Shown here: one piece after another, positions 1 to 51,038 of the stretch | How the letters are laid out: the number at the start of each line of letters is the position of its first letter | Position numbering within the stretch: the stretch's first letter is position 1 | Origin: Amoebophrya sp. A120 | Taxonomy: Eukaryota; Protista; Dinoflagellata | Length of the DNA stretch: 64,000 nucleotides | Direction of reading: 5' to 3' | Assembly: GCA_905178155.1 (NCBI GenBank) | Contig: CAJINV010000001.1 | Coordinates: 10,135,432 to 10,199,431, forward strand | Program-made: the position numbers and the translations under genes | The notes under the pieces: model-generated | What the model was told of the DNA's origin: nothing | The model's input: only the letters and a program-made list of their open reading frames with translations | Database searches by the model: none

Positions 1-3000
1 TCCTCCACCACGGCGTCCGCATCGAGCGAGAGGAGCTTCACGTCGAGCGCCCGCGAGCGCGCTGGCACGAAGCTGCAGAGCGTCCGGCTTCGCCGCATGG
101 CGGCAACCTACTTTTTGGAGACCGCCCGCAGTCCCAAGTGGTGCAAGCCGTTGTTCTGGGGCGCCCCGGTGGTGAACGAAATGACCGGAAGCAAACTCGA
201 GGACACCCAGGATACCAACGCTGCCTTCGCGGAGCTGCTCGGGGCCGTCGCTTTGGAGTCGGACCTGGTAACCCGAAACCTGTATTGGGCCGCTCTGAAA
301 AACGCATTCTACATGGTGCTCCAGCCCGCCGGCGACGACCCGGAAGACTGGCTAGCGCAGTACGAGTGGATTGCCAGTCTGGACGGTGATCTGAGCAAGA
401 AGTACGAGGCTAGCCTGGACCGGCTCCGCGCGAAACAACCCGGAGTGGACCAGAAGTTTGTGAATCGGTACGAACTCGCGAAGAAGCTGGAGGCAGCCCT
501 GCTTTCACTTCTGGAATTACTGGACAAACCCACGGTCGAGCGCGCGTTCAAGAAAGAGATTTTGGAGTTCGTCGAGCACATTCACGAAAAATTCAAGAAC
601 CTGTCGGATGGCTTGTGGTCAAAGTTTGCACAGTTTATCGCGGGTGCGCACACCCAGTTGGTCAGTCTGGCTGCCGACCAACGGCAGCAGGACGCAGCAA
701 AGAGCAAGCAGGAGCTGCGCAAGTTGTTTCGCGAAGTTCAGCAGGAGAGCATGCTCTTCGGTGAGGGTAGCGCTGCAGTTCAGCAGATGGATGTAGACGC
801 TGGATTTGCGGGTGCAGACGATGTGGAAGCAGATGAGAAAAGGCGGAATACAAGACGCAAAAGTCAGGCAAAGACCAAGACGCGCAAGACGCGGCAAGAC
901 CGGGAAGCCCGCATGGCGGGATCCGCGGTGCTGGACCAGGGCGACGAAGCGACGCAGCGTGCTCTTGACCGGTACACCGGTCGCTTTACACAGCAAAGGG
1001 CGGACGACACTTTTGTGGTGCAAGAGAAGCCGAACGTGGACAGCTCCGTGGTGGATGCTGCAGACTGGAGTCTGCTCTTTCTGCTCCGCAACGCACACGA
1101 ACAACGCCACAGCGCACTGGAGAGCGTCCGCACGCTGCAGGTTGGCAAGTACCAGGAGGAGCCGCTGCGCAACTTTTGGGATGCGCTGTATCGGGACTCG
1201 TACGTGGGCGAAGGAGCGGACAACACGAGTGGCGGCGACTATTCGACCTTGCTTCACCAGTCAAAAAACCGCTGGAAGAGCGTCACCACGCCTCGACGCC
1301 TGCAGACGTTGCTGCAAATGTTCGAGCCGTTACTGGTGCGTCTCCAAGATGACCGAATGCTGGTGTATGGGACGGATATGGAGGATACCGTTGTGCAACG
1401 CGCGTCTTCAGCGGCGGCCTCCGACGAGGAGAAAAACACTCAGTCACAAAGCAGAAGAGCCACGGGGGGAAAAGCGTCGGCCAAGCCGGCAGGCAAAGCT
1501 GCAGGAGCGCGAGACGAGCAGAGAAAGGACGACGAGAACAAGTCGCTGCTTCCCATTGAGAGCTACGATGGTCGTGAGTCTCCCGGGCAGAGCAGCGCGG
1601 GGAAATTCTGGAACGCGGCGGACGAGGGGCTCACAGCGGGCCGCTTCGCCGGAAGCCGGAAACCTTTCTCTGTTTTGATCGCCCGGCTGTACGCCGGACT
1701 AGCCCAAGCGCAGTGGCAGCTGGCAGACCAGACGCGCGTGGTTGTGCCTAAGTTGCGCGCCATGTGCGACCGAGTGGTGACCGCGAAAGACGAAAAACGC
1801 GCGGCGCCGGACGACGAAGCTGTTTTCAAATGGTGCCGGAAAATGAAGTTCATCACGGGCGTTATCTCTGCTGGAAAACCCGAAAGCGAGTTACCCGTCG
1901 CGGAACGCGATCGGGTGCTGCTTCAGAAGGTGCAGTTCACGGACTTTGAGCTGTCCCCAGCAGTGCTGGGCATGTTCCATTCGGTTCTCAAGTCCGGTAG
2001 TCAGTGGACCGAGTCGCGCGTGTGGGAGCTACCAGAAGCACTCGCCACGGTGTTGCGCCCACGCCGAGATGTTGGCCACAGCAGTGGAAAGAGTGGCGAT
2101 AACGTTGCCGCTTCCGCCGAGAAGCTCGCGGAACTAATCTACCGAGAGCCTCTAGCCGCCCCGTTCCCGCGCCCGAAGCCCGTGATTATGAGCATCCTGC
2201 GGTTGCTGAACCTGCACCTCTGGGGTGGCAACAGAAGGACCAACCAAATTCCTCCGGCGTTGACCGTGACGTTGTCTGAGTACTCCCTGGGCATGACCGT
2301 GCTACCGAATGCGGGTCGGATTTTGTACGACATGGTATCGCCGCAAATCCAGAAGCTTCTGGACAAAGCAAATGCGCTGAGAAACGAGCTAGCCACCGAG
2401 GTTGCAACCTACGAGGCACGCAAAAATGCTGCCCCGCCGAGCTCTTCACCACGTGAGGCTGGAGCCAGCGTAAGCGGGTCGCCGTCCGCGAGAACAAAAG
2501 ATCGAAAAACCGAAGGCAGTCGCAAGATTCTGAAGCTCGTCGGAGAACTGGGGCTGGTCCGGGAAAAGCGCCAGAAGCTCGAACACGTGGTCGCGAATCG
2601 CATGGCCGTCGTGTCGCGCGACTGGTCCACGTTGGCGACCAGTCGGAAAGCACGGCTTCCGGAAAATCCGTCCGTCGGCTTGTGGCATGTGAATGTGTTC
2701 GCGCGCGTTACCAACATCCAGATCTACAGCGTCATGTCGCTTCTCGGGGCCCTGGACAGTTTGGGGCGACACCTGGCTGCAACGGCGCATAGCACCACCA
2801 CCGTGGAGGATGCGCTGGCGTGGGCGAGGTTCTGCAGCTGGCAGGCCCAGTTGTTCCCAGCGCAGGTACAGGACGAGAGTTGTGGAGGAACTCTGGCCAC
2901 CGGGCCGCCGGCAATGTTCAACGCACAAGGGGCTAGTAGCTTGATGCAACAGATGAAACCAAATCAAGACAGCAGTGAAACTCCTGAAATCGACGGCGCG

Positions 3001-6000
3001 TCATCTGCTCCCGTGCAGCTTGGGGGTGCGAAATACAAACTGCGAGGGCAAGAGGACCATGAGTTCTTCTGGACGCGCGTTGCTGCGACGCCGGACGAGG
3101 AAACGCAGATGCGAACCCGGTTATTGCGGGGTTACCTGGAACTGCTGACGCGTGAGGGCGGTGGAGGTGTGGGCTTTGCGGCTCTGCCGATGTTTCTCTA
3201 CCAAAGCCTGGAAAAGATTCGGGAAGCACAGAATGCCAGGCAAGACCACCGAACGAGCGCCGTGGCTGCGGTGGAAAATCATGGAAATCAAGATGAGGCA
3301 AACCGCAAGGCCCAAGAAGCCGTTTCTACGCGGGAGAAGAGCAAAGGCGCCATGGAGGTGGACGACGGGTTTGTCGATGCGGGCGGAGCAGCGGCGGTTG
3401 AGGCGGAGGCTGCTGCGCGTGCCGAAGAGCAAAAGGAGGGTTTTTTCGGCGGGATGGTGACAGGAGCGCGGGAGTATTTTAATTTAGACGAGGGGCAACA
3501 AGCGGAGGCTGCGATGGATGTGGACGAAGAAGAGGACGATGCACAAGAAAACGCTGCTGACGGCAGCCCTGGAAGCCGTGACTCGAAAGTCAAGAAAACA
3601 ACCATCACGCTGAAGTCGACCGACGGAAATCAGGCTCCGGGAGATAGCAAGACCGAGGAGGAGGCTGAGCAAGCACAAGTCGGAAAACACCCCCGCTTCG
3701 AGCTGTTTCCGTTGTTCCGCGTGATGCTGCTAGGCCTACCTGACGAAAGCACGGTGCTGGACGCGTTTCTGCAAGACGCGAAGGGAGTCGAGGTTGCGGT
3801 ACGAAAAGAGGCGTTTGGGGGATCTTCAGAGAGTGATTTAGGGGAGGACGATCTAACCTCAGAAATTGATCTTCTGGGATCTTCGGCGGTGGCCTACACG
3901 TCTGTCTCGCCGCTCTTCGTCAAAACCGAGGAAACGCGACACCGGGCCATTGCGCGCACGCGCGAGTCTGCAGCTGGCCGTCCCCTGACCGATACCGAAT
4001 TGCGGTCGCTGAGTGTCAGTAGCGTTCTGGCCGCGGCGCTGCAACAGGACGTCCTCCAGAACTTGATCGCTCGAGAGGCTGCCCGCAAGTTGCAGCAGTT
4101 TCAGCAGGTCGCCAACCGCGCATATCGCTTGGCGCAACGCAAAACAGACGTCGTCGAGGCGGTGCAATTCGACGCGGAACACACTTGGTTTGCTCAGGTA
4201 GAAATGGACGGATTGAAGAAGTTTCCGGAAGCGGCCGCGATCCTCAGCGCTGCCAACCTCGACGTTGCGGACGGTTCTCCACAGGGGGGACAGCTGGTGC
4301 TCGTGCACGACCTGCCGCGGTTTGCGCAGCGCGCGGCTGCGGTCGGCCTGCTGCGAAAAGTGGACCAGGTTTTTGGAAGCAAAACTAAAGACGAACTTCG
4401 AGAGGGCGCGCTGCGGCCTGAAGACGACGAGCTGGAGTCGGAGGAGGACCAGCAGCAGAAGGTGTTCCACGATATGATGGCGTCGATCGCGTTACCGCGA
4501 AATGCCGAGCTCGCGACCCAGTACCCGGTGCTGGCCCCGTCTTTGCGGGCCTTTCCGCTGAACAGCCTTTTGCCGTCTACACTGCAGATTTTCACAGCCA
4601 TGCTCGACCGGGGGGCGCAGTTGGAAGGCGGAGGCGCGGCAAAAATGGTGGACAAGATCTCGATCCTCTTTTCGATGGAACGCACGGTCGGAGTTTTGAA
4701 GGCACTGCGGCATCTGTTGGACCAGCACCCGGAAGCGCAGTTTTCGTCCGATATCTGGACAGTTCTGGTTCGTGCCATAAATGAGAATCGGACGGCGTTG
4801 CTGAATATGAAACTGCAGGCCGTGCAGGAATTCCTGCTTCTGATCCGCACATACATGCTGCTGGACCGACAGGATATCAAATTGGCCGCGGCAGCAGCGA
4901 CTGCAAAAAATGCGGAACTGTTTTCGACGACTGAATTTGCGCAGATGCTTCACGAACTGCCTTTCGTTGCAGGTGATCCTCACGCGGATCGACCGGAAAG
5001 CAGTCCAGGAAATGGAAAAACGACAAGCACGTGCAAGAAGCTCGGTTTGTTTCTACCGGACGTCGTTCTAAAGTTCTTGCGGGAAACCTTGCTCGAGCGC
5101 GGAACGGCCAGCAGCGACACAACAGCACCGCTCGCGCAGATTCGTCGGGCCCACCGAGACCTGGCGTTTGGCATTTTGTCCTCCTATGTGGAGTGCGGTG
5201 ACAACATTAGCGTCCCCGCGAACGTTGGCGCGGCCATCCAGTTCGAGGCCGCCGCGCGCCAACTGAAGGAGGCAGTGGAGCTGCGCGCGACTTCCTACGC
5301 ATCCAATACAGTGCTCACAGCGCAGACGCAGATGGCCTACCGTGTCGCGAAGACGACGAGCTGGACGATTTTGAAGGGGTATCTTCTAGACAAGACCAAC
5401 CCCATTCCGGATTCTGCTTTGGACGCGGTGAACGCAGTCATCGACGCCGTGGGTGCCTCCGGGCCGCAAAAAGCCTCTCCTTACGTGAGCGCAGGATCAG
5501 CAGGTGCATCGCCATCGAGCAGCCCGATCGTGCAGCCGAGTCTCGCACGCGCGAATTCGTCTGGCGGCCAGATCACGAATCAGTTTCGTAACCAGCACCA
5601 CAAATCCGATGTCCGTGCTGCCATCCACATGTTCGATCTGCTCGGGCACCTGATATCGGAGAGGCGGCAAAACATCCTTCCGCCGGCCACACTTAGCAGA
5701 ATCGCGCAAGTCTTCCACTCTCTGGCGTGGTGGGCCCGCAAGCGCATCAAGCTGGCGTGCGGCGTGAAAAAGCCCTCGGACCAGCAACCGAGTTTCCTTT
5801 CGCGCGAGACGACGTCCGGGGAACTCACCAGAGGACGAAGTCGAACGAACAAGCTGCGCGACACTTCGCCGGAGGGGTGGTCCCCGACGAAAGGAAAGGC
5901 CGGGAGTTCGCACGCAAATGCTTCGTCGACAAGCAGCTTGCGCCTGGATCTTCTCGACCGCATCACCTCGCTTCTGCTCACCATGCAAGGCAGCAACATC

Positions 6001-9000
6001 GGAGGTGCTCTGACGGACTCCCCGCTGTTGTCCGAGTTGCGCCAGGTGGCGGTTTCCTTCCTTGGCTTCACCACGACTCCTGCATCCCGAGGAGCAGGAC
6101 AAACGAAGACAGACGAGCAGCAAAGTTCTTTCCTGAACCCGGAATTGAAGCGAGCCCTCGAGACCGCAGAGTCGCAGTACAAGCCGGGAAACCAGGACCG
6201 CACCGCGCCATCTGCGAAGGAGCGTTTCCTAGGACCTGCGAAGCCGTCGCTGCAACAGCTGCAACAGTCAGAGTACATGGTCTGTCTCACCTCATTCGAT
6301 AGGTACGCGCGTCTCCGTAGTCGTGTGCTGAACGAGTTCTTTGCAGCGCGCGCCGCGCTCGCAGTCCCAGATAGCGTTCTCGACGACGACATCGCTGCCA
6401 CGCTCCTTCGCGAGCACTTGTTCCTGATACAGCATCTGGCGGGCACCTTGGACGACGGTGACGAAGAGCCGTCGGAGCAGGACGGCACGATTACGAAGAC
6501 AAGTGCAGCAAGAGGCGGGATTCAGAGCGCCGTGAGCAGTTGGCTCATGAACACAGCAGCTGCCAAAGGCGACCAGTTTCAGGAAGTCGTAAGTCGGTTC
6601 TCCGCGTTCGCACAGGGAATTTTCGGCGGCATGGCAGCACCGAGCTCGACTGAAGACGCGGATATGGCAGACGCGTCGCCTGCCACCAGTGCACATCGAT
6701 CGCCGACCCGCACCTCGTCTCTCTCGTCGAATGGCGGCACGGATCTGTCGCGACGTGTGCCGATGAACATCGCGGCCCGGTGGGAAGCCTACCGACGTCT
6801 GCGTCTGATGCGACGGGACGATACCGCCGGTGCGATGAGCCAGGCGCTCGCCGCGCTGCAGACTTTGTTACGCACCAGGCTGAGCGCGACACGTACGTCG
6901 CCGGCGTTGCTCGCCGGAGGCCTGCCCATGCCGGCCGTGGGGGAGGAGCACTATCCGACGCTGCTCTTCCGCGTGCTGCACCTCAGTTTGAAGCACGTGT
7001 CCGCACAGGAAAACGAAGTCCTGGACAAGCGCATCAGGAAAGAGGCCTTCGACCTCGTTGCGCGTGTCCTGGTGCCGGCAAAAGACCCGTCTGCAGCCGC
7101 CCGTGGTCGATCCGGACAGCCGAAAGCTGGCGTTGACGACAAAGTCTACCTGCCCTCCCTGCGTGAGCTCAGCATCATCGCGAAGTCGCTGGGCGTCCCA
7201 CTAAAGGAGACGCGGCGCCAGGGCGGGTCCGCCGAAATCGAATCGCGCATCAACCCGAAGGTGTTTCAGTCACAGCTGGAGTGGGACGCGATCAAGGACG
7301 CGTGCCGGGCTGCCTGGCTGGACCGCGCGACCGACCCGCAGCCCGGTCTCGAAACCGCGATCCTGAACGTCCACCGTGTAGCCTTCCTCCGCAAGTTTGG
7401 TTCGCAACTTCTGCACGCGGCAGAGTTTTCACGAAACCTGGACGCGGCCAACGAAGAAGGTCACGATCAAGAGGACAGCAACGCTCGGGCTAGCAGCTTC
7501 GCTGGATTCGTCGACCAGATGCGCGAACTGATTCCGAACAAAAAGTTTGTCGAGTTTTACCAGGGCGTTGCGCCGCTCCTCGTCACCGCCTCAGATGGTC
7601 CGGCAGGTGGGGGCGACGGCCCGCCCGGAAAGGCTCCAGAAGTAGAGGATGAACATACGCGGGTTGCGCGACGGGCGGCGGAGAACGATGCCCACCGAAA
7701 GTTGTGCGACCATGCGAGTAATCCACAGCACTTGAGTGCCGAACTGCTGCGAAACATTGTTTTGGCGGGTTGTCTTGAGCCGCGCGGAGGCAACATAGGA
7801 GCCACTTTGCGGACTGCGCAAGGTGGAGGTGGGAGTGATGGCGCGGTTTTGGGAGCCGGCCGATCGCTACTTCCGGATCGCCGAGCGGAGCGAGTTTTGA
7901 AGCAGCTCCACGAGCGCGCCCTGGTCAATGAGGACGTGGAGCTTGCGGTGATCCTCCCGGTGCTGGAATACATGGGATCTTCTGGAAGCCCAGCGGGAAC
8001 TGCCGATGCGCCACCCAAACCTGCAGCGAGCAATCTGCTTGTTGTCCTTCCCCTGTATTGGCTCAAACGCATCGCTTTTCTGTATGCGACTACGCGAAGT
8101 ATCGCGATGGACCAGCAAGACGAAACCTCCGCTGCCACCTTGAAGAACTTCGTGAAGCGCCTGCGCAACTTGTTCGAGGCGCAGATCGTGTTACAAGTGT
8201 TTGCGTCGCGGCACGAGGGAGAACCGGAGAAAAGGAAGCTGGCCTTCGACGCGCTTGTCGAATTGCTGCAAGATCCGCTGGTGAAGCAAACGATTACAAC
8301 CTTTGTCGACGAGAACGACGAGGACCTACTCCCAGAACGAGAGTTCCAGGCTGAAGGAACACCTGACAAACAGAAAGTCCCGGCCGCGTCGCTGGTCGCG
8401 AAGATTTTAGCGTTGGTCTGGCGACTAGATTTGATGTCCGGCGTTGCGGCGGGTGACGACGAAGAGAAGAACAGAAAGGACTTCCATGAATTCCGCCGCG
8501 CGGTACAAGCGCAGGTAGAACCCCGCATCGTGAACGCGCTTTTTGGTCGGGACGTTAGCAGCTTCACTGCGGCGGGAAAGCGCTCGGCGTACTTCGGTTC
8601 TGGTGAAGTTGACGAGCTTCTCACCGCCTGTGCGAACATCAAGTCCTATGCGAAATCGCTGAAAACGGTTCCAACGCGGTTTGAAGTGGAGACCCTGGTT
8701 GCACGGGGTGTGGACCAACTGGCCGAGTTTTTCGGCAGTGCTGGCCTCAAGCGCACGAGCGAGATCCAGGACGTGTATTCGAAGATCGTTCTGCGGGAGC
8801 ACAACGTCGCCTGGATTCCGCAGTCGGATGCGCGGGTCGCACTAGATCATCTGTTTTCCGTCCTGCTTGCCACGGCGGATCTGGTCATCACCGCTTCCGA
8901 AAGCTCGGCGTTGCGCAACGCCCTGATGGATTACGGCGCCGAGTCGAGTGTCCTGAATCCGGCGCTGGACCGCCCGGACCGAGCCGCCGCGGTGGCGGGA

Positions 9001-12000
9001 ATTCTTCCGACCCTCGGCCTCTCGCAGTCGCTACACAAGCGGCTCACCGACGTTTTGCTTGCTGGAATGTCCGTGTTCGTGCGCGCCTGGAGCAAAGACG
9101 TGCTCTACGCCAACGCGGACTTACCGCGTGAAGACTGGCACAAGGTGGTGGCCGCGGATGACAAAGAGGACCCCGATCTTCTTCGCCGGCAGACGAATGC
9201 CCAGCTTACTGCGCAGATGCGCGAGGTTGCAAAAACAGAGCAGATGTTGCGCAAATTTGCCGGTTTGTCGAAGAAGCATGTAGACAAAAACAGCAGAGCA
9301 AAGCGAAAAGAAGATGATGAACAAGAACCCACGTCGCAAGTCGAAACCGACACTATGATCGCGACCACCACTTCTCTTTCCCTCACACCTGCGGAAGCGA
9401 AAAAACTTGACGAGGAAGTCGATCGGCGAGCCAGCGAGCGCCAAATCCTGAGCGAACCACCACTGCGAAACACGAAGAACGGGCTGTTTGACGCGGTTGC
9501 ACACCAATTAGAGACCTACCATCCGGAGTTGGTGCGCGCAGCGTTGACACAAAACAGCGTGTGGGTCCACCGCAACTTGGCCGCCACGGATGCACTAGCC
9601 CATGGAGGCAGAGAAGAGAAGAATGAAGAAGAGGTCTCCTCACAGGGGGCGCAAAATTCAGAAGCAGATTCTTCCACGTCCGCATCGGAGCACGTCAACA
9701 CTTCCCGCGTTTCGGACCCCACGAAGCTCACCGGAACGATGCTGCGAGAGCAGGTCTTCACTGTCATGCGCGCGCTAAGGCACAGCCTGTTCGGCCCTCT
9801 CCTCGGCTTTGCCTACGAGTACGATGCGAGGCGAGGCAAGTTTACGGAGATGTTTGTGGGCGAGACGCAGTACAGCTCGGCCTTCCTCGAGTACTGGCGC
9901 ACACTGTACAGTGGGACGCTGTTCCAGAACGCAAGTCTCCGGAACAAAGTTCTGCAGGCGGTGCAGCGAGCGCAGCAGGAAGAGAGCGGCGGCAAAGCCA
10001 CAACGGAGGAACAGCAACAGGCGCTGCTGTCCGTGGACGCGGTAATGCGGGCACGCAAGGCGCCAAGCTTCGACGCTTACTTGGACTACGTACGAAAGTT
10101 CCACGCCGAGGGCGATCTAGAAGCCCTCGCCGCAGCGGAGATTTACCGTCTTCCCATTTACCTCTACGCGGAAAATCGCAATGGAAATCCTGAGTCTAGT
10201 TCTACTAGCAAGGTCAAATTGCGCCGGGTTATCTACCCGCGCTTGCGGTTTTCAGTGGGCGACGACGAGACCCGCGAGCAAACGCGAGATCTGCTAAGTC
10301 TCTACTACAGCGACTTTCAGCGGGCGCCGTCCATCAATGGGCGCGAACACGACCAGGACAAAACCTTGGTGTACACAGCGCAAGAGGCGGAAGTTCTCGA
10401 GCGGCTCGCGGTGCCGCAGGCAGCGCTGCCAGCGCTGCCATGGCTGGAAACACTGACAGAAGAGCGTGTGACGGTCTTCGAAACCGTGGATGTTTCTTCG
10501 CAACGCATCCGCGTCAACTCTTTCTTGACGCGAGCGCGGCTGACCTTGATGGAGCATCCGGATCGCTTCGGAGATTTCGTGCAGAAGACCTTACTTCCCT
10601 TTGGGCTTTCGGTGGATAGCACCCTTGGGGCAGACGGTAACTTGAAAATCAAAAATCTGTCCTTCGACCGGTATGATGCAAACGAGGCGAAACTACTGCG
10701 CGCACTGCTGCTCCTGACAGACACCACAACGGAAGCGAGTCTGGGTGTCGCTTCGATTGCCGAAGTCCTGCCGCGGAACTTGGCGGCGCACGCAGAGGCG
10801 AAGAGGAAGAACCGCATGACGGACGATGCGGAAGTGAAGGCGGGCGCAACGATAACTCAAACGCACGCAGGTCTCCTCGGCCTGGCACCCAGTTCGGTGC
10901 CGCTCGCGGTTCGCGAACAGCTGGCGTTTCTGCCAAAGGAAGATCCAAACGAGATTCTGTTTACACTGATCCCCGGAGTGCCGGGTGCCGACAGCGGCTT
11001 GCACGCGGCCATGGGAGAGGAGGACCAGGCGACCGGAGAGATGCGGCTGCAGCCTCCGAAACCGAAATCCAAAGCAGCACAGAAGCCCAGCGCCCGATAC
11101 GCCCGAGAACGGTTCGCGCACCGCTTGCACGTTGAGACCAAAAACAAGCTAGGCCTTCTCGAACCTCTGCCGGAAGGAGCGAGTGGGGGCATTGTGGCCG
11201 ACATGACTGCAGCAGCAACCGATAAGCTAAAAGCTGTCGGCGAGGGCTTGACGAGGATTCTTGGACCGTCCCCAGAGTCCACTGACGCTGGCAAACCACC
11301 GCTGCAGCTGCACTATGGAGTTACTCAGCGAGAACTGCAGAAGCTTTCAGGAGCACCAGGCTCGTGGTATCGCCTTCTTCGACAGGTTGTCGCCGAAGTT
11401 TTGAAAACCGCTGAACCCGAGTTATCATCTACTTCGAAGGTGGGACCACATCCAGCGCGCGGCCGTAAAACCGTTCGCCGGCAGCAGGAAACGCGCATTG
11501 TGTACAGTGCCGTACTCGGAAAGATGCGCCGGCTGATTACAGAACAGGGTCTGCAAGCTGCTGCCGCCCGGAAGGGCGCCGCAAGTGAGATCGCCCCGAG
11601 CCTCCGTATCACGGAAGGGGAATTTGACAAGGCCGTGACGGATTACCGAAAATCACCGCCCGCGTTAGAAAGCCCCTCGCAGTTGGCGGACTTCTTCGCG
11701 GTTGTGTACGCAAATGCACTCGATCCTGGTGATAGGTACTCTCTGTTGCCACCGGAGCTGAGTCTCTTTGCGGTGCTTGAGGATTCCGTGGCAAAGCGTC
11801 GGCACCAACTTGAATGGGAGACCGCTTCCCCACAAATGGCAGACCGCCTACGACATGCTCCTCCACCGAAGCCGACGCAATTGGAGTTCTTCGACCTTGC
11901 TGACCTCAATTTGCAATTGCTGCAAACGCTGCAGGCACAGGCCGCCAACGGTGTACGCATTCTAACGCGAATACAGGAGCCTACCAGTGGAGACTACTTC

Positions 12001-15000
12001 TACTCGCGTGCGCAATTCAAGCGGCGGGTGGACGTCACAGCCGAGGAAGCGGAGCGGTACCAGTGGCGCGGGGTGAATGCGCGCAACAAGGTCGTTGTGT
12101 ACAGCATCGAGGTTGCAGATGCAGGCAAGTATTCGCTCACTGCACAGGACGTCACGCAGACTGCGACCTCAGTGCACGATCTGCCACTCGCGCACACGGT
12201 ACCGGACGGGCACTTTGCTGCTACTCTCGGGCAGGCACAAACCTACCTGCAAGACCGCAGTGGGGTACGAGTGAAGTACTTGTTGTACCTCGGGGAATTG
12301 CTCTCGCAGAAGTTTTGTCCACGGTCGCAGAGTCGGGACGATGCTCTTCTGGTCGTGCCACTGTATGAGAGTGCGGCGCGGCCCGACGATGCTGGCAATC
12401 AGCCCGACGATCCAATGTCTGGCAGCGCCCAACATCACGAAGAAGCAGCCTACAAGGGTATCGCTAACGTTCTGCACCGCGGGATTTCTTCGCGAGCTGC
12501 TATACGCGCAATGGAGCGCTTCTGGTGCCGCGGCGAAGCGTCCTCATCGATTCTGGATGAATCTTCCACGGTTACACGCCGCTTCATTCGCTTTGACGTT
12601 CCCGCTGTAGCAAGTTCCAGCGCGGACCCAACCGGGGAAAGCACACTGTTGCTGCACGAACCGTCAGTTCTCAGGATGGCGTTTCTGAGCAAAATTTACC
12701 AGCAGAACTTCTCCCCCCAGGCTGAACACGACCTGGACGAGGTGCTGCCTCTGTTTGTGCAACCTGAAGAGGTGGAGCCAGGCAGCAGTAGTGGAGCCGG
12801 TAAAGATTCTGTGCAGAACGCAGGAGCACAGAACAATAAAGCCAGCGGCTCAGCTTTGTACGCCGGGCTCCACACGACAAGCAGGGAGCTCGCGCTTTCC
12901 CCCGCAGTGGAAGAGGCTATGGGTGTGTTGCAGGAACAGCAGCGCCGGTTCTGGGAAGTGGAACAACAGTTGCTCCAGAACAGCCACGCGGTGCAGCTGC
13001 TGCTGCAGCGAAAGCTTGCCGCAGCACACGAGGCTGCGAAGAAGGACATCGATCAACTTGTGAAGGTCCTAGAAGAGCTGCAGAGCATTACTGGTGCGGC
13101 GCCCGACTCGGTCGTGCCGCGTAATCACCCGATCTGGGGTACTTTAAGAGGCGCCATTACATCCGGAGTTCAAGCTCTGGACGATTTGCACCGGCAGCGT
13201 CAGCTTTTTGCAGTGGATCGATCGGCGGGGGTTGGCGACTCAGTCGTGATAGCAGAGTACCATCGTGATGCAACGAATGGCGGAGGGAGTTGGCAGGGGA
13301 CGCTCGGATGGGTCCGAAAATGCACGGTTGTGATGGACGCTGCTAGCGACGGCGGCAGTAGTGCACCGGACGGGGAGTCATCTTTTGCGGACATGCTGAC
13401 GCCAGTAATCGGTTCTGTCACGATGCTTGGACAAATGGAAGCAGCCTCGAAAGCCGCACAGATCAAGGACGTCGAGAAGAAAGTCAAGCTTTCCGAGGAG
13501 AAGTTGGAGGTAAGTCGACAGATCCTCGCGACCCTCACGCCTGCTGGCGCCGCGATTCGGGAGACGCACGAGGTCCAAAGAAAAATGCTTTTCACGGAAT
13601 TTGAGCAGTCGGTCCAGGACTTTGTAGCCAATAAAATCAGAAGCACGACGAGGCAGGGTGGTGGCATCCCGCAAGGTGAGCAACCCACGGATGAGATGTG
13701 GAAGTTCGTGATGGGTTTCATTCAACCTTATGTTGCGGAACTGGGAGAGTTGGAGGAGCGGATTAAGTTCAAGTACTGGCAACAGAAAAAACCAAAAGAG
13801 GATGAAGCTGCTGCGGTGAAGCAGGAGGCTGAGAAGATACTTCAAGAAGCAACCAAGCTCAATGAAGAAATGGAAGGCAAGATTATTGAGGAAATTCGGA
13901 ACCAGCGCCTTGGCGATCCTGACGCCCCGGTGACGCCCGACGAGCGCGCAGACATTGAGACTGGACCGCACGGCGCCAGTATTCGTGCCATGAAAGAGGA
14001 GCAAAAGCAGGCGGCGCTCCGATCAGAGGCTGCGAATACAAAGCTGAAGTCGATTCAAGACGAAGTGAAGCGGATGATGGAGCAGCAGGATAGAGAAGTG
14101 AACGAAGCAAAAGCTACAAGGCATGCGCTTTTGGCTAGTGCGGAAAGGACAATCGCGAGGAGGAACGAAAATGCGAATAGGCTAGCGCAGGCACAGTGGG
14201 ACAGCATTTTGAAAACAAAAGTGACATCGGCGAAAGGAAGCGCGAAAATCAAGCAGTTTCTGACCGATCCATCGTTCGGAGGCTTGCTCGAGGCGCCGAT
14301 CTTTTCGACAGGACGCGTTGCGGTAGAAGGGGACCCGGACATCGCAAATCTCATCTCGAAGATGAACACGGCGCTGACCGTGCAAAATATCCAGCAAAAG
14401 GACGAGCACGAGCGCGCGCTAGATGACTTTAGTACAAAGCTTTCGACCGCGGTCTCGAACTACAACGCACGAGTGAAGAGAAAGGAGGAGGAGAAACGAG
14501 AGGGAATGCTGCAGGCACTGGCGCTGTTGCGAAGGGAGGAGCAGGAGCTCACAGCCAACCCATTGGAGCAGCAGTGGTCCGCAGTTCAGACCCAGCTGCG
14601 GAAGCAAGAGAAGGAGGACTATGGATTCGATGTGAAGGGGCGGTTTGTGTACAAGGAGGAGTGCCACGTAGAGGTGCGCAAAGTGTCCGCTTCACGCGTC
14701 GCCAAAGCGGCCAACAATCCCATACCGGAACAGTACGCTGGGGCCACGGAGGGGGTGAGTGGCGTGTTGGAAGATTCGGACGAGAGCGGGGAAATCCTCA
14801 TCGTGCCGTCGCAGTTGCTCAGCAAAAACAAACTGCTGCTGCGGCGACTCTGGGAGCTGCGCTTGCTGCAGCAACGCACGTTCAAAGCCAAGTCGCTGCT
14901 CCGCGACGCGCGCAGCGATATGGTGGAGTCGATGGCATTTCGCGAACGTTTCCTCGACTTGCCCGCGGACGACTTCCGGCACCGTCCGGGCGCGCTCGAG

Positions 15001-18000
15001 GCCGTGCGCACACTGGACGGCCGAGGAATGTCCGAACGGGGCACGATCGAAGACGTCGTAGACCCACTGCACGTCAGTTTTAGCTCCGATGCGCCGCTGT
15101 CTGGCGGACTGGGTCTACCCTCGCGTCTGGACGTCGCCGCATTTCCGTTTCACGCCTCGAATCTCGAGACTGTCGGATCTGCCGCGGGCCTTACCGACGC
15201 GCACCAGGCTCTGCTCGAGCGCGATCGGCGCACGCGCCGCCAGCTGCAGGAGCAAGCCGACCTGGAGCGCGCGTTGCAGAAATCTTCCTTGCGCGCTATG
15301 GAAAGGGTGTTCGCTGACGTCTTGCAAAGTGCGTCGCTCTACGAGGTGCGCGGGCAGCAGCGCATCATCGACATGGCCTTTTCCGCACTGAAGGACCTGG
15401 CCGCAGCGTCGGTGCGCGTGGAAGAGCCGCGCTTGCCCGGCCTGCCTCTTGAAACCGAGCAAGCGTTTGCGTTTGCCATGGAGCGAAGCGGTCGAGACGC
15501 CCTCGCCGCACTGAAAGTGATCCAGCCGGCGCCCGAAGACAAACAACCGGGATCCGCACGGCCGCCAGTTGTTCTTCCAGGCGATAGCTCCGCTGCATCT
15601 TCTGGTGTTCCAGTGGAAGGCACAACACCTTATCCGAGCGGCGCAGCTGGGAGTCACATGCTGCCAGCACCAGCTGTGCCCGAGGACCAAAGAGCTCCGG
15701 CGGGAGAGGACCATCGGCCATTGATTGCAAAACCAAAATCGACGTATGCGAGCGCATCTGGAACAACGGATCCAACAGGTCTTGCCAGCGTGCCGGAGGC
15801 CACGGAGCTTTCATCCACAGCGCCCGGGGAGCAGGACACGCTACTATCCGACACAGACGCCGAGCAGACCGTGGAGATTGTTTTCGACTACCTTAGCCTC
15901 GCGGATGAAGCGTCGGCAGATTGGTTCGCCTCGCAACCACTGGAGTGGCAGCGCCGACTGTCGGCCAGCAGCTTCGATGCGAACGTGATAGAGCCGGCCG
16001 CGGCAGAGTATTTGCACATGGAACGGCACGGGGAGGACGGTGGCGCAGTGCATGCGCCGTACCGTACGGACTCTGATTTCGAAAATGCTGCGACGACAGT
16101 GCAGCTCGAGCCTGTGGCGCCGGAGAATGTGATCAAGAACCTGATGATCGCAATCTCGCCCAAAAGTTCGGTGCTCAGCAAGAATGCGCCGGAATTGAAG
16201 TTGGAGGCAAAGCAAGTGCAGTTTACCGCGCATCTTCGGGAGAGCGTACGGAAGGAGCTCGAATCGGAAGAAAAGAGGAAAACCGAGTGCGGTCCAGCAG
16301 CAGGGCATGCTCCGGGGGCGGGTAAGCGCACTGCAGGCAAAGAGAGCTCCGGCTCCTCTGCCCAAATCGAGGACCGCACGCTCTGCTGGGTGCTTTCCGT
16401 TCTGCGGGAGGATAACTACCCAAACCCGCTCTTCTGGCGGAAAAACAGCGCGGGTGCAACACCGGTAGCCACAGAGGCCGAAGCGCACGTTATTGCCGCT
16501 GAGAAGATGGGGCTCCAGCTGCCCTCGCAAACTCGCCGTCGGTTCCGGGTGATGTCGGCTGCGGCTGTTTTGTCCAGTGATTACGGGGACGCCGTGACCC
16601 TGCAGAAAGATTCGTTGGAAGCTTTTCACGGCTACGTCCTGCAGCGTGCGGGCGAAGTGTACTTGTCGCTGGCTAACCCGGTGGCGGACGAGGAAAACCA
16701 GGAACCGGTGAGAAACCCGGTCCTGCAGGAAATCATTCGAAACTACCTCCCGCCAGTCTGGTGGACGCCGGAAGACCAGGCCAACATGCCGAGAGACGCA
16801 GAGATCAATACCCCGGAGCAATTGGACGCCTACCGCCGCCCCGTAGACCAAACCTTGGTGGATTTCGTTGAGACCTACTTTGTTGCGGCGCACAAAGACC
16901 TCCGCCCCGGGCGAGTATCCCCGGCAACCGGGGGTCGGCGTGCGACAATCGTGAAGGCTGTGTCAACTACAACCTCGTCGCAGCAGGAACGTGCAGAGGT
17001 GACGTTGAGCGATTTCGCACTGGATTTTCTGAAAACCGAGCTCTTTGCTTTATCGAATGTTGGCGATGGGAAGGAGAGTGCAACCGGGCGGTATGCCCAA
17101 GACGTTGGCCCCACTGTTGAATTGCTGGTGGACCGGTTCCTCGAAGCCGGCTTTAGCCTGGCAGACGTCAATCACGTTCTGCGAGAAGTGGTGCAACTGA
17201 TGACTGCAACCAGCGAAGACCAGCACATTGCGGTGCAGCAAACTTCTGAGCTCGTCAATGGAGATATCGTTTTTGGCTCAGCGTACAGCCCGACCGCGTT
17301 CACGTACTCGGCTTCTACAAAAAAGCATTTTGCGGCGCCAGCCTTGGCGGAAATCATGTCCTTGTTGAAATTGCGCATCGAGCTGGTCGTTGGGAAGGGC
17401 GTGTTTGTCGGTCAAAAAGATCTCGATAGGCAGTATGAGGACCGACGCTCTGTTGCAGCACTTCAGACACGACAGCCCCTGTTTGCGAAGCGCGACTGGT
17501 ACGGTGTCCTACGCCACATCGAAGTTGCGGGGAATTTGCTAGTCGTGCCAGAACAGCCCGAAGAAAACTCGTCCGCTGAGGTCATGTTTCTGAAGCCTTG
17601 GATTGCGGCGTATTATTCTATCGGCGAAGCGCGGACGCCTCCTGGCGTGGCGTTCGTGTGGACGCAACTGGCACAAAAGCTTACGCTATCGCAGCTTCCG
17701 CTCAGCCACATTCGGTCGCTTTTGGATCGATTGCAACACACGGGGGACCGACTAGCCGCAATCAAAACCAGCTACCACTTGCAACTTCCAAGCATCCGCG
17801 AGATGCAGCAGAAGTTCCTGCAAAAACACATCAACACAGCCTCGTCCGCACACTTGAACGCGTTTTCCGGGGGCGATGGTTTCTCAGGCGCCTATTCCCA
17901 CATGACCGGCTCCAACCTTTTCCGGGCGGGGGAAAAAATGGCCCTCGACGCGCAGCGGGATCGGACCATTTTTCGCGAGCAGCTCGCTCCGGCCTACGCT

Positions 18001-26387: not shown

Positions 26388-26392
26388 TGGCG

Positions 26393-35300: not shown

Positions 35301-38300
35301 GGAGTACTTGGCGCAACAGCGGGAGGTCCAGCTTGCCAAGTACGAATCCACCCTCGCGGAGGCGGACCGCCGCGGGGTGTCCTTCATCTTGAAGATGGGC
35401 GAAAAGGCGGTGTTCCCACCGATCAACTTCCTCATCGTTTCCGCCATTTTTGTCGCGCAGTTTGCGGTCGCGGTGTACTGTCCGCCCCTGGCGGTCAAGC
35501 TCGGAATGGAAATGGCGGGAGACGCCGCGGTGCTGTACGAGATGTGGTCCAGCCACACGTTCCAGGGCTGGGGCCGGTACAACGTGCAGAAGGCCATCTC
35601 CGTCGTGTCGATGGGGTTTTCCACCGTGAAAACCGACGCGGACGGCAACTACATGTTTTCGAAGGCGTACGACGAGCAGGGCAAATTCAAGGGCCTGACG
35701 TGGGAGGCCACGGACGAGTTCCAGGCCTGGGCCGGCTGGGCGTCCACGGCCACCGAGGAGAGCGCGGAGCGGGCGGCCGTGGCCGGAAGTACGAAGGCGT
35801 CGACGAAAGCGGGCGCGACCAAGGCCTCGAGCGCCGCCGGCACGGAGGCGGCGGAGGGGGTGGCTACCCAAGCGACTAGGGAGGCGGCGGAGGAGGTCGT
35901 TGAAGAGGCCGCGGAAGACGCGGTGGAGCAGGCAGCCGTGAGAGTTACTCAAGAGAGCGCGGAAGAAGTGGCGGCCGGCGCGACCAGCACCAGTTCCACT
36001 GCCGGGGCGGCGGCCGGGGAACAAGTCGGAGAGGCCGGAGCCGCGGCCTCGTCCGCAGGCGCAACTGCAGGAACCGGTCTGGAGAGCATGACGCTGCAGC
36101 GCACGGCCATTACGACCGGACACGTTGCGGAAAAAGTGTTTGAGAAGGTCGTGGAGAACAAGTTGCAGGAGATCTGGAAACCGATTGAAAACGACATTTT
36201 GACCAAAGTGCAGCAAATGTTTGACACGATCCTGCAGGGAATCTTCGGCCGCGACTGGCTCTACAACGGGGGGACCAGCACGATGGTTGGTTCGTCGCAC
36301 GACCTGAGCAAGGGCCAGAATTTGAACACTTTGTTTGTGCAGCTGCTGGCGGTGAAGAACAACGACATCGCGGACGTGAAAAATGAGATTGAGGGCATCA
36401 TCAACAACAGCATCAACACCGAGACGGACCTGACGCTGTTCATGTCGAAGGGGTTGAAAGACTCGTTCTCGCAGTACTTCAAACCCACGCTGGATGCCGG
36501 CATCGAGCATGGCTCGGGGGCGGTCCTCGGCAAACGCGCCTCGGAGAAACGGTTGGCGGCTCAAGACCAAAAGGAGGAAGACGCTGACAGGGAGGAACAG
36601 GAAGACAAGGACTATGAGGAGGAAATGAAAGCGCAACAGCAATATCTAAACGAGAAGGAGAGAGGCGGGCTCGACATCAATAGCCAAGCGGAAAAAAAGA
36701 TTCAGGAAGAGGAGAAGGAGATCGCGGCTCTCGAAAAACGCCACGGCGGCGCGCAAGAGGAAAGTAAGGGCACCAAAAACTGGAGCAAACAGTGGAAGAA
36801 GTACTACAAAACGGGCGGCCAGGTCCTGGCGGGACTCCAGTTGGTGACCTCGTGGCGGCGCATTGTGCAGCAGACCCTGATTGGTTTTCAGGAGCGGTTG
36901 GCCACGCAGGTCGACCTCGCGAAACTGACGGAGCGAACGGCGGGCAGGCTCGGAAAACGCAAGATGCCCCGGCGGGAGCTGGAAAAGTTGTGGAGTAGCC
37001 ACGAGGGTAGGTACCTGGAGCGGCAGTGGAGGCGCCCCTTCAGCGCGGCGGAAGTGCGGCGCCTTAGCAACAACCCGGCGCTGCGCAAGATGACGGAGAC
37101 GGTCCAGAAATTCCGCAACCTCCGGGACAAGAGGCGCGAGCAGCAGAGTAAAACGATGATCCAAGAGGCGCTTGCCGTGGCCGCCCCGAGCGTTTCCCTC
37201 GGCTGGGGCTCCAGCGAAGAAGACAAGAAAAAGGCGCACACGGTTGAGCAGCGGCGCCAGGAGCTGACGGAGCGGTACCAGGAGGAAATCCGCGCGGTCT
37301 ACGAGCGCCGCGACCGTCCGCAAACGCAACTGCAGGACACTCTGTTGGACGTGCTGGGCCGCAAGATCAAGGCCTACCGGGACTTGCCGATCGTGCGCCA
37401 GAACTTTCTGCTCGGGCTGCGCAACTTCTTCTTCCGGCAAACCCGAGAGTGGGTGAAGCAGCACTTTGTCCCCGACGTCGTGAATCAGCTGATGGGGCAA
37501 ATGGCGGAGCTGGCCGCGAAGGGCGCGGGGACGGCGGTTATCAAGGTGCTGCGGATCAAGGAGTGGGGCCTTTTCAAGGACCACTTCGACGCGGAGGAGA
37601 GAAAAGTGCGCGACGCGCTCGAGAAAGTACTCGCAGCGGAGAACAACCAGAAGGACGCCGAAGAGTTCCTCGCGATTCTCCGGGCCGTCGAAGAACAAAT
37701 CAAGAACGGGGAGCTTGGCGCAGACGGGCTGCTGCCGACTAAGGTCAAGTTGCCCGGGCCCCCGGACAGAGAAGTCGAAGTGCCCGCGTCAGTGAGAAAC
37801 TTGGTAGACACGCCGACAGACGCGGACATGCTGAAAGACCAACTTTCCGACGCGCTGCAGTCGGAAGCGGGCCAGGAGAGCGTGATCCAGAGCACGATTG
37901 AAATGGGCCAGCGTTACAAAGATGCGGGCGTGAAGGGGGACATGGTCAAGTGGAAAATCGGGGACAGAGAGGTGGAGATCTTTTTGTGCGCGGAGATGGT
38001 GGCGTTCGTCACGTTTCGCCACGAGAAAAAGGTGAAACTGCAGGCGGGCGACGATGTCGACCCGAGGGAGAAGCACAAGGCCACCGACCAGCAAGTGAAC
38101 GCCGCGGTGCAAGACCCCGGGAAGGCTTTGAGCTTTCTAGAGCGGAACGAAGACAAGGATCTGAAAGCGCTGGACGATGCCACCGAGGAGGATCGCAAGG
38201 CCGCCGAGGAGAAGCGCAAGCTGACCCCGGAGGAGCGAAAGCAGAAGCAGAAAGAGGCGGCGGAGCGCCGGGAAGCGAACGAGAAACAGAAGAAGCAGGT

Positions 38301-49833: not shown

Positions 49834-50829
49834 GAGGTCTACTGCTTGCAGCATGGAGGCCCAGAGTCCACAAGCCTCCACCAGGGTTGGGGACTCAATC
49901 AATGGAGGTTTTTTCCCAACTCTGAGGAGAACATGAAGACCGTCGCAAAAGAGATAGCCGAGGGGCATGCGACAGCAGCCAAGGAACGTGCCGAGAAACA
50001 CGGGTACCCAGATGCGATTCATTGGAAAATCGTAAATCTGCAGTGCTGCATGCATCCTGATTTTTCTACACACTTGCAGGCAGCCCTCGAGCAAGCCTTC
50101 CAGGACAAGGGCTTGCTTGATGCGCCTGGTGCGAAAGTGAGTCACCTGCACTGCAAGGGCAAGGACGCGCATCAAATTGACGCGGAAAAGAAAGGCAAAA
50201 CGACTTTAGCAATAGCGGGGCCCGGACGAAGTTCCATGTGGTTCAGACGGGATCACGAGGAGAACACTGATGATAAAAAAGTGAATATTGAGCGCGACAT
50301 TAAGAAGAGAGAAAATCCGCTCATGGAGCACAAAAAGGATCCAGATGCGTTTTTCAAGCAGCAGCAGGAAAAAATCGACATGGCTCCTAAGCGCCGCACG
50401 CAACTGCATGACATGATTGGGGATCTGACGACGGTCTTTCGCGCATATGAAGAAACGGGCGAGGAACACACTCCTCAAGCGAAAAAAGTTGCTGAAATGC
50501 AGGAACAAATCGCGCAACAGCTGGACAACTTGCACCTCCATCAAGAAAACGGCCAGGGTGTCGCCACCGCGCAGACAGCAGAAGAGCGAAACGCCCGCGC
50601 CCAAAGATTGTCTTGGGAGGACAGGACTCAGGCCGGGACTCCTCAGGACGAAGACGCTCGCCGAGCTGCGTTGCTTGCAGCAGCATCAAGTTTTATGACG
50701 CGGTCAAATTTTTTTACGCAAGGACCCACATTCCAGCCCGCGCCGTCTCCCAGACGAGCTACCGGGGCTCAAAATGGACGAACTATGACTGAGAGAAAAT
50801 CTGGCTTTCTCAAGACGCCACGTAAGTAG
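49834..50829 (+). CDS. Giant protein, probable further exon (stops at 50829 or splices at gtaagt 50822)
   Basis: ORF 49846..50829 lacks an ATG at its start and is in frame with the upstream join. Confidence 0.65.
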   Translation, partial: EVYCLQHGGPESTSLHQGWGLNQWRFFPNSEENMKTVAKEIAEGHATAAKERAEKHGYPDAIHWKIVNLQCCMHPDFSTHLQAALEQAFQDKGLLDAPGAKVSHLHCKGKDAHQIDAEKKGKTTLAIAGPGRSSMWFRRDHEENTDDKKVNIERDIKKRENPLMEHKKDPDAFFKQQQEKIDMAPKRRTQLHDMIGDLTTVFRAYEETGEEHTPQAKKVAEMQEQIAQQLDNLHLHQENGQGVATAQTAEERNARAQRLSWEDRTQAGTPQDEDARRAALLAAASSFMTRSNFFTQGPTFQPAPSPRRATGAQNGRTMTERKSGFLKTPRK

Positions 50830-50992
50830 CATGCAGCCGAAGCCTCTCAGTTTGTTATTTTTGTCTGGATGTCATAGTCATTCTCAGCAACGGTTGCTGG
50901 CTTTTTCGCTCGAATTGTTCGTAATAGTATAACAACTTGTTACATCAGAAGATACAGCTTTCGCTTCGCGTTCGCCAGACGAGGCACTAGAT

Positions 50993-51038
<46 letters not shown>
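50993..51038. repeat. (TAAG)11 microsatellite
   Basis: Eleven perfect taag units followed by ta. Confidence 0.97.

Follow-up and report, generated by a model that had tools for sequence, protein, structure and literature searches.

The 64,000-nucleotide stretch of Amoebophrya sp. A120 DNA analysed here (assembly GCA_905178155.1, contig CAJINV010000001.1, positions 10,135,432 to 10,199,431 of the forward strand; hereafter the window) raises the question of whether a succession of long open reading frames (ORFs), separated by mobile elements, belongs to one giant gene, and what part a SecA-like ATPase could play within its product. A preliminary description, drawn from the letters of the window, had proposed one hidden gene built around this ATPase. 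That proposal has held up: introner-type interruptions, abutting frames and three of seven junctions joined in RNA-like contigs make one giant gene of at least about 15,000 codons, interrupted mainly by transposon-derived introns, a well-supported conclusion. Taken as a whole, the locus probably represents one nuclear A120 gene (14,975 codons, predicted 16,103) split by ordinary and introner introns, which would code for a SecA-like motor of a clade of large bacterial proteins with a role at a membrane.

A giant frame interrupted by introners

Two ORFs lie in frame 1 of the plus strand, ORF A (1..26073, 8690 aa) and ORF B (26359..42327, 5322 aa). ORF A is open at its 5′ end at base 1, as the preliminary description had stated, and the 32 codons ahead of its first ATG (nt 1-96) have a GC content at third codon positions (GC3) of 0.906. 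Coding therefore very likely extends upstream, and the true start of the gene very likely lies outside the window. Frame 1 is free of stops from base 1 to 26064 and again from 26392 to 42288, while frames 2 and 3 of the former stretch hold 253 and 203 stops, respectively. Joining 1-26064, 26392-42288, 42621-42986, 46438-46901, 47027-49114 and 49507-49552 gives 14,975 stop-free codons (8688+5299+122+866) to 49552; segments joining in frame with these same figures had been described before. Adding 49852-50783 and 51287-53741 leads to the predicted full model, from which seven intervening segments are removed and which counts 16,103 codons with a terminal stop at 53741. The earlier size of about 16,100 aa with the last ORF included thus stands, whereas the end of that ORF, first placed at 50829, had to be corrected: an RNA-like contig leaves this ORF at 50783 and resumes at 51287, from where the frame runs to 53741. 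Size alone is not new: the longest A120 exon in Table 1 of the genome paper already measures 44,016 bp (Farhat et al., 2021, PMC7789003). The GC content is 0.53-0.60 in the exons and 0.37-0.49 in the introns, with 0.55 for the longest introner. The parts of the model are given below, where IE designates an introner element and X1 the assembled contigs of one run, whose type was guessed as RNA (hence "RNA-like") and which were examined on 31001-51000.

1..26064, +, exon 1; 8688 codons, open at base 1
26065..26391, +, IE1 introner, predicted non-canonical intron; 327 nt, the element itself at 26066-26387
26061-26065 and 26388-26392, +, IE1 direct repeat TGGCG, 5 nt
TATTGTGAGGAAAAATCCCCCCTCCCCATA, +, IE1 inverted repeat, starting TAT TGTGAGG AAAAA
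26392..42288, +, exon 2; 5299 codons, hydrophobic clusters at nt 26422-26601, 35401-35502 and 41161-41265
42289..42620, +, predicted canonical GT..AG intron; 332 nt, in frame, GC 0.446
42621..42986, +, exon 3; 122 codons, GC3 0.836, hydrophobic segment at nt 42855-42935
42987..46437, +, IE2 introner; element 42989-46434, 3446 nt, inverted repeat TAT CCTGAGT AAAAA
42984-42988 and 46435-46439, +, IE2 direct repeat GAGGT, 5 nt
46438..46901, +, exon 4; from frame join and X1 contig
46902..47026, +, canonical GT..AG intron; 125 nt, removed in an X1 contig
47027..49114, +, exon 5; 78-nt tandem repeat at 48162-48629 encoding RRNAV(Y)
49115..49506, +, IE3 introner; element 49120-49506, inverted repeat TAT GCATTGC AAA
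49115-49119 and 49507-49511, +, IE3 direct repeat GATTG, 5 nt; no GT-AG register possible
49507..49552, +, exon 6; 46 nt, predicted, conditional on the intron 49553..49851
49553..49851, +, hypothetical GT..AG intron; 299 nt, in frame, GC 0.455, 13-nt inverted repeat
49852..50783, +, exon 7; X1 contigs 50031-50235 and 50246-50783
50784..51286, +, non-canonical intron TATGACTGAG...GCATAAGTTC; 503 nt, 17-nt inverted repeat, (GTAA)n; seen removed
51287..53741, +, last exon; in frame with exon 7, ends at the stop
62928..63254, +, second IE1-family copy; direct repeat TGTTG, in a CorA-like gene outside the giant gene

IE1, its second copy, IE2 and IE3 all display inverted repeats made of TAT, 7 nt and a run of A, together with 5-nt direct repeats, which is the signature of A120 introners, a strain-specific kind of element. 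Indeed, passages of the genome paper describe inverted repeats composed of TAT, seven less conserved bases and at least three A, direct repeats of 3-5 nt at the introner borders, and introner ends that pair as a hairpin and draw the exon ends together; they also put the number of repeated introns in A120 at 29,850 and the share of non-canonical ones, among introns validated by RNA-seq, at more than 60% (Farhat et al., 2021, PMC7789003). A120 introners are described as stemming from diverse terminal-inverted-repeat (TIR) DNA transposons and as able to yield tens of introns per gene (Gozashti et al., 2025, PMC12130899).

IE1 encloses both the stop codon of ORF A (TGA, 26071-26073) and the ATG of ORF B (26359), and therefore neither is a native signal. 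Its RNA fold has a z of -12, with a terminal stem that pairs the ends of the element. The GC content is 0.486 within IE1 and 0.684, an exon-like value, just after it (26392-26619). Exact removal of IE1 and one direct-repeat copy restores the frame, with the predicted junction peptide SKSGGAQAGHYFQK. Junction 1 (26064/26392) is accordingly a prediction from the class of the element, the exact restoration of the frame, the lack of a spacer and the exon-like GC that follows. In-frame GT-AG alternatives at this junction end at 26418 or 26619 and would shorten or remove the first hydrophobic cluster; in every case ORF A and ORF B stay within a single coding sequence. The copies of the IE2 direct repeat provide GT on the 5′ side and AG on the 3′ side, and removal of 3451 nt again restores the frame exactly. 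Exon 3, which follows the 332-nt intron, has no start codon near its 5′ end.

The second IE1-family copy illustrates the behaviour of this family. It lies in the C-terminal part of a gene for a CorA-like Mg2+ transporter (window 62857-63472), where it splits the first transmembrane segment (TM1) directly ahead of the GMN motif (...ISGYAGMNFE...). Removing it with one TGTTG repeat restores the frame ...LTVLTIITAAALPATMISGYAGMNFE..., and Pfam CorA matches its right flank (6e-4) from profile position 238. The interruption of TM1 means that the IE1 family occupies the coding sequence of a second gene, which is repairable only by removal from the mRNA.

A public protein overlaps the locus. A 1101-aa piece around the SecA region matches CAD7926421.1 (Amoebophrya sp. 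A120, 614 aa, partial, on a 16.5-Mb contig), with BLASTP blocks of 122/122, 98/98 and 45/45 identical residues and a further block of 379 columns, 60 of them gap columns, that holds 309 identities. Compared with window 22138-26620, this model keeps mainly the blocks homologous to SecA, discards as introns four in-frame stop-free stretches, each of about 60 to about 210 aa, and joins ...SKSG (26064) to LHSTDP (26620), skipping 26065-26619; judged from this pattern, it looks like a homology-driven fragment. Searches of proteins of 605-1927, 1928-5000 and 4779-15208 aa found no longer A120 protein over the SecA region, and in that sense the gene is hidden; nor did protein searches find giant homologues of near length. 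Contamination by bacterial DNA was ruled out by the A120-type introners within the gene and by the presence of the public model on a 16.5-Mb contig. As for the literature, no publication containing both 'Amoebophrya' and 'SecA' was found, and the main text of the genome paper (PMC7789003) has 0 occurrences of 'SecA' or 'giant'. Nothing on this gene or on an Amoebophrya SecA-like protein was thus found in print, though the supplements of PMC7789003 and PMC12130899 may list introner families or gene models at the locus. Introners are published, and giant proteins around a SecA-like ATPase are known, so far described in bacteria.

Three of the seven junctions are joined in X1 contigs. Between 46901 and 47027, 125 nt with GT..AG ends are skipped (depth 3.8). 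Between 49114 and 49507, 392 nt are skipped and 5 letters fit both sides (depth 4.7), which corresponds to IE3 plus one direct-repeat copy. A third contig has a loose end at 50783, the continuation of which matches 51287-51316 exactly; this match defines the 503-nt intron and places 49852-50783 in frame with 51287-53741. Removal in RNA-like contigs is therefore seen for IE3 and for the non-canonical intron 50784-51286, the IE2 joint not being seen. Within exon 2, X1 contigs cover 40148-40306 and 41817-42018.

On the other side of the balance, several points speak against a single polypeptide. X1 coverage is thin, reaching 13 of the 30 bins of 31001-51000. The preliminary description had named RNA across the junctions as its check, and the result is divided: beside the three joined junctions, none of the thinly covering X1 contigs shows a joint at 42288/42621, 42986/46438 or 49552/49852. 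Junction 1, which fuses the two big ORFs, lies outside the stretch examined for RNA and is predicted only. Three raw RNA runs under the same species label (X7-X9) gave 0-1 reads on 31001-51000, too few to inform. Finally, the GT-AG intron 26065-26619 of the public model, which is in frame, would delete the first hydrophobic cluster.

Two or more proteins would result if IE1 were spliced rarely or not at all, with ORF A ending at the IE1 TGA as a soluble SecA-like protein of 8,690 or more aa and ORF B made as a separate membrane protein, from the ATG inside IE1 or from its own transcript. The 26064/26392 joint is not observed in the RNA-like data, which were examined on 31001-51000, an ATG is available at 26359 within IE1, and Amoebophrya genes are arranged in same-strand clusters (Farhat et al., 2021, PMC7789003). 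We nevertheless regard this arrangement as improbable, given that stop and ATG both sit in a mobile element belonging to a class that the literature describes as introns, that the frame is exactly restored once IE1 and one repeat copy are removed, and that there is no spacer for untranslated regions. Moreover, a member of the IE1 family splits the CorA-like domain, which needs to be rejoined for the GMN pore; the bacterial relatives hold the module and downstream hydrophobic segments in one polypeptide; and CAD7926421.1 also joins across junction 1.

The 3′ end of the single gene is less secure, as the junction 49552/49852 is the weakest of the model. Without the intron 49553..49851, the frame after 49507 continues to a stop at about 49739, and the giant gene could end there (about 15,037 aa), with 49852-50783 and 51287-53741 forming the next gene of the cluster. 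No X1 contig joins 49552 to 49852, and an in-frame ATG at 49933 could begin a separate ORF. Against this shorter gene, GT (49553) and AG (49851) delimit an in-frame intron with a strong pyrimidine-rich acceptor, the GC content of 49553-49851 (0.455) is typical of introns here, and the downstream frame is open for 81 nt before its first ATG with a GC3 of 0.59. An end at about 49739 is a serious possibility, though not the one we favour.

It could also be asked whether the locus is a decaying relic, acquired horizontally, hit by transposons and no longer translated. Three transposon-type insertions in coding sequence and low coverage in the one informative run (X1) would fit such a history. A frame of about 48 kb with zero stops, set against 203-253 stops in the other frames of exon 1, does not, and neither do the retention of every residue invariant among 29 aligned relatives, the coding-like GC3 and the existence of X1 contigs with introns removed. 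Decay is therefore very improbable, and the single giant gene is retained in what follows.

A few further observations concern the repeats and the surroundings of the gene. X1 depth peaks at 8.4 over part of IE2 (43007-43673), and contigs enter and leave IE2 from other flanks; loose X1 contig ends at 42989 and 46434 indicate that copies exist elsewhere. IE2 is a multi-copy repeat, transcribed or abundant, and none of its ORFs that were inspected is transposase-like or convincing. Two X1 contigs also align onward from 31352 and 48663, the preceding 255 letters matching nothing in the window; these loose ends could reflect chimeric contigs, paralogous sequence or distant splicing. A (GTAA)n microsatellite occupies 50996-51039, inside the intron 50784-51286. 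Downstream, a same-strand ORF (window 55005-56312) has sub-threshold matches to EamA/PUNUT/NIPA-type transporters and is probably a separate gene of the same-strand cluster.

The SecA-like module and the segments that follow it

In the predicted protein, about 7,400 aa without recognisable family precede the SecA-like module, and about 7,600 aa follow it. The features on which the identification of the module depends, and one segment of the part that follows, are these:

22321..25380, +, SecA-like module; aa 7441-8460, nucleotide-binding domain 1 (NBD1), PPXD-like insert and NBD2, with three lineage-specific inserts
nt 22462-22473, +, Walker A GEGK, in NBD1
nt 23338-23349, +, DEVD, in NBD1
41101..41307, +, Gly-zipper-like segment (third hydrophobic cluster); Pfam DUF6861, 30-31 bits (cut-off 28)

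The ordered set of SecA motifs noticed at the outset is complete: besides the two motifs of NBD1, the TGT motif and the NBD2 motifs TN.AGRGTD and Q..GR..R.G are present. The Pfam search suggested in the preliminary description places three families over their cut-offs in SecA order within aa 7480-8370, namely SecA_DEAD (39.3 bits, gathering cut-off 24.6), SecA_PP_bind (31.3 bits, gathering cut-off 23.5, covering only profile positions 52-110 of 110) and P-loop_SecA (28.7 bits, cut-off 27), with Helicase_C slightly under its cut-off. A phmmer search of PDB sequences returned 25 SecA or SecA2 sequences (best 6e-20). In a 29-row alignment with bacterial relatives all invariant columns are kept, including GEGK, DEVD, TGT, T..GRG.D and Q..R..R.G. 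The AlphaFold2 (AF2) model built from this alignment has a mean predicted local distance difference test (pLDDT) score of 62.9, the conserved cores reaching 80-95 and the three inserts being poor.

The module cannot be counted as a canonical SecA: its scores with the NCBIfam models of that family are 61-98 bits, where the cut-offs are 725-1493 (TIGR00963, 81 bits vs 800; PRK09200, 98 bits vs 862). Canonical SecA hits carry PF07516 and PF02810, and no SecA_SW or SEC-C match was found at E<=0.05 in 50 tiled pieces of the window protein. Long helices follow NBD2 in the AF2 model (residues 992-1051, pLDDT 50-68), where a scaffold-like helix is possible. Identity to true SecAs is 23-31% (E 4e-6 to 9e-8), and identity to four large proteins (2056-4198 aa) is 26-35% (E 1e-28 to 1e-47). 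By Pfam, PDB sequence search and Foldseek, the module qualifies as a real SecA-like ATPase; it is not a canonical SecA and probably not the motor of the Sec pathway. The earlier view that this is no housekeeping translocase gains support from the low NCBIfam scores, the lack of SecA_SW and SEC-C matches and the placement in a clade of large, effector-like bacterial proteins. The plastid is reported lost (Farhat et al., 2021, PMC7789003), so that no plastid Sec pathway is expected; a plastid SecA relic was set aside on the tree, which contained no plastid SecA, and on the scores.

The hydrophobic Gly/Ala segments that had been noticed after the SecA motifs could be located. Nine stretches of the window protein have a mean hydropathy >1.5, and four strong Gly/Ala-rich clusters (aa 8699-8758, 11692-11725, 13612-13646 and 14066-14092) are all downstream of the module. 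In bacterial relatives of the same clade, a strongly hydrophobic segment follows the module by 300-700 aa in 20 of 25, three of the five exceptions being cut by contig ends; a hydrophobic segment ahead of the module was found in 1 of 32 proteins, and the sister clade has the downstream segment in 0 of 7 rows. Because the clusters belong to ORF B and the exons after it, and the module to ORF A, the conservation of this arrangement adds to the case for one protein. A phmmer comparison of ORF B with a 36-sequence set gave one relative, weakly (E 1.8e-4, two colinear segments), with 0 hits in 6 controls. On the third cluster, weak Gly-zipper_YMGG and Bacteriocin_IIc matches to the same stretch mean that the DUF6861 match may be compositional.

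What such a module does can be read in more than one way. PPXD is the polypeptide clamp of SecA, and the PPXD-like insert is kept here above the Pfam cut-off. In a Foldseek search with the AF2 model, all 29 listed rows below E 1e-3 are SecA or SecA2 (best 4e-16), helicases appearing only above 1e-3, and the hydrophobic clusters are confined to the part after the module, which is also the arrangement in the relatives. These three points count against the alternative that the module of a single gene product is a nucleotide-dependent switch or a nucleic-acid helicase-like part of a scaffold or cytoskeletal protein of giant size that takes no part in host interaction. That alternative, which we hold to be unlikely though not negligible, is favoured by some 15,000 aa without family and by the position of the N-terminus, with any secretion signal, outside the window; in addition, Zhang et al. 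(2012, PMC3482391) class 'SecA-like helicase-related domains' among the 'regulatory modules' of Amoebophilus effectors in the passage that treats them. We continue with the reading of the module as a motor.

Outside the module, Pfam searches with the tiled pieces at E<=0.05 gave no other family beyond chance-level hits, NCBIfam gave nothing, and self-BLAST at 1e-5 found no internal repeats. Cys content is 0.4%. For the last 499 aa encoded by exon 2, a single-sequence AF2 model had a pLDDT of 38.8, too low to be of use. Two motif-level suggestions of the preliminary description fared differently. An OTU-like motif did not survive: an OTU deubiquitinase was rejected as a family assignment, as there is no Pfam OTU match at that threshold and none in the PDB sequence search. 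What exists is a sub-threshold language-model lead from the Atlas (score 0.88, 137-142 shared features), whose top three named clusters have OTU in 20-77% of members; in a comparison by eye with what we take to be the OTU motif, a Gly stands at the position of the catalytic Cys. The PKI-like motif is present, with nothing beyond the motif to accompany it. RRNAV, which would fit the R-R-N-A-[IV] that we assume to be the PKI pseudosubstrate motif, occurs seven times at aa 14599-14787; five of the seven are within a 26-aa tandem repeat (78-nt units) and are thus not independent.

Bacterial relatives and the origin of the module

Relatives of the module were sought in one genome per prokaryotic species with patterns drawn from the SecA-like subfamily, canonical SecA being excluded by design, and 51 of 235 pattern matches were confirmed as loci. 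Going by record titles, thirty of the 51 come from lineages known as intracellular: Rickettsiales (8), Legionellales including Coxiella (5), Francisellaceae (1), Chlamydiae (6), Amoebophilaceae/Cardinium (3), Holosporaceae (2) and Mycoavidus (5). The remainder comprises 14 loci named to class or phylum only and 7 others. In the 29 loci with a match over most of the module, the ORFs holding it range from 508 to >4051 aa and reach at least 2000 aa in 14, many being cut by contig ends.

Pfam searches on 11 relatives found ankyrin, TPR, UCH, a match to Scabin/pertussis-S1-like ADP-ribosyltransferases, phage lysozyme and DnaJ. Among the four large relatives (2056-4198 aa), one has an Ulp1/ElaD-SseL-like peptidase (C48) and one a C-terminal colicin-D domain. 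Individual combinations recovered from metagenome-assembled genomes (MAGs) include the module with a C-terminal phage lysozyme (L007, Francisellaceae), with an ADP-ribosyltransferase-like domain and DnaJ (L009, Legionellaceae) and with a UCH deubiquitinase-like domain (L026, Amoebophilaceae). A hairpin motif, ...AQ(I/V)..G...G(I/L)GL(I/L).EG(V/I).DL(I/F)TA..., recognised by eye in 8 sequences, is common to many relatives.

Trees of 12 and 37 rows included 4 canonical SecAs, one eukaryote and no plastid SecA. The window module nests in a 26-row clade (SH-aLRT 100), separate from the 4 canonical SecAs. With a lone eukaryotic sequence nested among bacterial sequences, the tree suggests that the parasite lineage received the module, which may have come horizontally from an intracellular bacterium; the direction is drawn from this nesting. 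Among eukaryotic SecA_DEAD proteins, the Atlas lists arthropod and chordate clusters. The bacterial relatives represent the class noted in Amoebophilus effectors (Zhang et al., 2012, PMC3482391) and, with a predicted function as a secretion aid, in giant actinobacterial toxins (Kaur et al., 2021). SecA domains also occur in giant Omnitrophota and actinobacterial proteins, for which export of the giant protein itself is proposed (10.1101/2023.11.21.568195).

Proposed role and comparison with known systems

If the predicted junctions are spliced, the product would be a single chain of 15,000-16,100 aa, or a longer one. Its SecA-like module, possibly acquired horizontally from an intracellular bacterium, would use ATP to clamp or thread polypeptide, either in cis or by acting on partners, beside membrane-embedded segments of the same chain. 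A role of this kind is proposed for the SecA domains of giant Omnitrophota and actinobacterial proteins (10.1101/2023.11.21.568195). The protein would be placed at the parasite or host membrane and not in general secretion. A role at the parasite-host interface is proposed only because of the bacterial company of the module and the way of life of the parasite; by this analogy, the likely task of the protein concerns a membrane and the interplay of parasite and host, as opposed to housekeeping translocation.

Some results pull the other way on origin and function. The patterns were derived from the subfamily, so the taxon spread of the 51 loci is not an unbiased survey; the nearest tree neighbour, a Francisellaceae MAG protein, has a support of 91 (below the 95 mark), and the window branch is long (1.44). 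A profile of 20 bacterial hairpins reached 0.3 bits on ORF B, which does not exceed the scores of shuffled sequences, and the part of ORF A that precedes the module resembles none of the relatives. Separately, a scan of metagenomes for the N-terminal part of ORF B gave 30 pattern matches, of which 0 were confirmed. The preliminary description had gone further and suggested a self-translocating effector or toxin. This part remains a conjecture; no effector, toxin or host-interaction domain was found by Pfam in the 50 tiled pieces of about 16,000 aa. It is a long shot that a SecA-type motor, captured from the kind of bacteria with which the parasite shares its niche and set within a 16,000-aa protein, drives the Gly-zipper segments of that protein into or through a membrane of host or parasite with no need of SecYEG; if true, host takeover would here involve a self-contained, SecA-driven translocation device, the first of its kind in a eukaryote.

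The wider meaning of the locus is threefold. For annotation, introner-rich genomes can conceal very large genes, a 614-aa partial entry standing here for 15,000-16,100 codons. For evolution, a SecA-like subfamily known from large, effector-like proteins of intracellular bacteria is also part of a nuclear gene in a eukaryote that lives as an intracellular parasite, which points to gene flow between organisms whose common habitat is the interior of protist cells. For mechanism, a protein with intact invariant ATPase residues near membrane segments offers a eukaryotic case in which to ask whether such modules move polypeptide.

Compared with what is already known, the public model CAD7926421.1 is the same locus, 100% identical in its blocks, but it is a 614-aa fragment and leaves the giant ORF unrepresented in the searched protein collection. 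The interruptions differ in nothing essential from A120 introners and non-canonical introns: the start of the inverted repeats, the 5-nt direct repeats overlapping the borders, the end hairpin and, for IE3, the removal without GT-AG in RNA-like contigs are the same, IE2 being long (3.4 kb) and its GAGGT repeat incidentally creating GT..AG. Canonical SecA and SecA2 share the NBD1-PPXD-NBD2 order and the motifs, and are the best structural matches of the module. The module, however, is embedded instead of stand-alone, scores far below equivalog cut-offs, lacks SecA_SW and SEC-C matches and falls outside the canonical clade.

The large SecA-like proteins (1,000 to over 4,000 aa) found mostly in intracellular bacteria, which include the Amoebophilus-type effectors, belong to the same subfamily and clade, and likewise carry the module within a protein of several thousand aa, with invariant ATPase residues and, in 20 of 25, downstream hydrophobic segments. 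Unlike them, the window gene is eukaryotic, nuclear, interrupted by introners and about four times longer, with three large inserts in the module; their ankyrin, TPR, deubiquitinase, ADP-ribosyltransferase, lysozyme and colicin-D domains were not found in the window protein, which has no bacterial secretion system at its disposal for delivery. The Omnitrophota proteins termed 'Archaeovorin' and 'Dockerin-type' and their actinobacterial counterparts come from free-living predatory bacteria and carry glycosyl hydrolases, peptidases and beta-helices not found in the window protein. As described in the relevant part of the preprint, however, they resemble it in being giant and largely unannotated and in combining SecA_DEAD and a preprotein-binding domain, no detected scaffold or wing, and adjacent transmembrane regions (10.1101/2023.11.21.568195).

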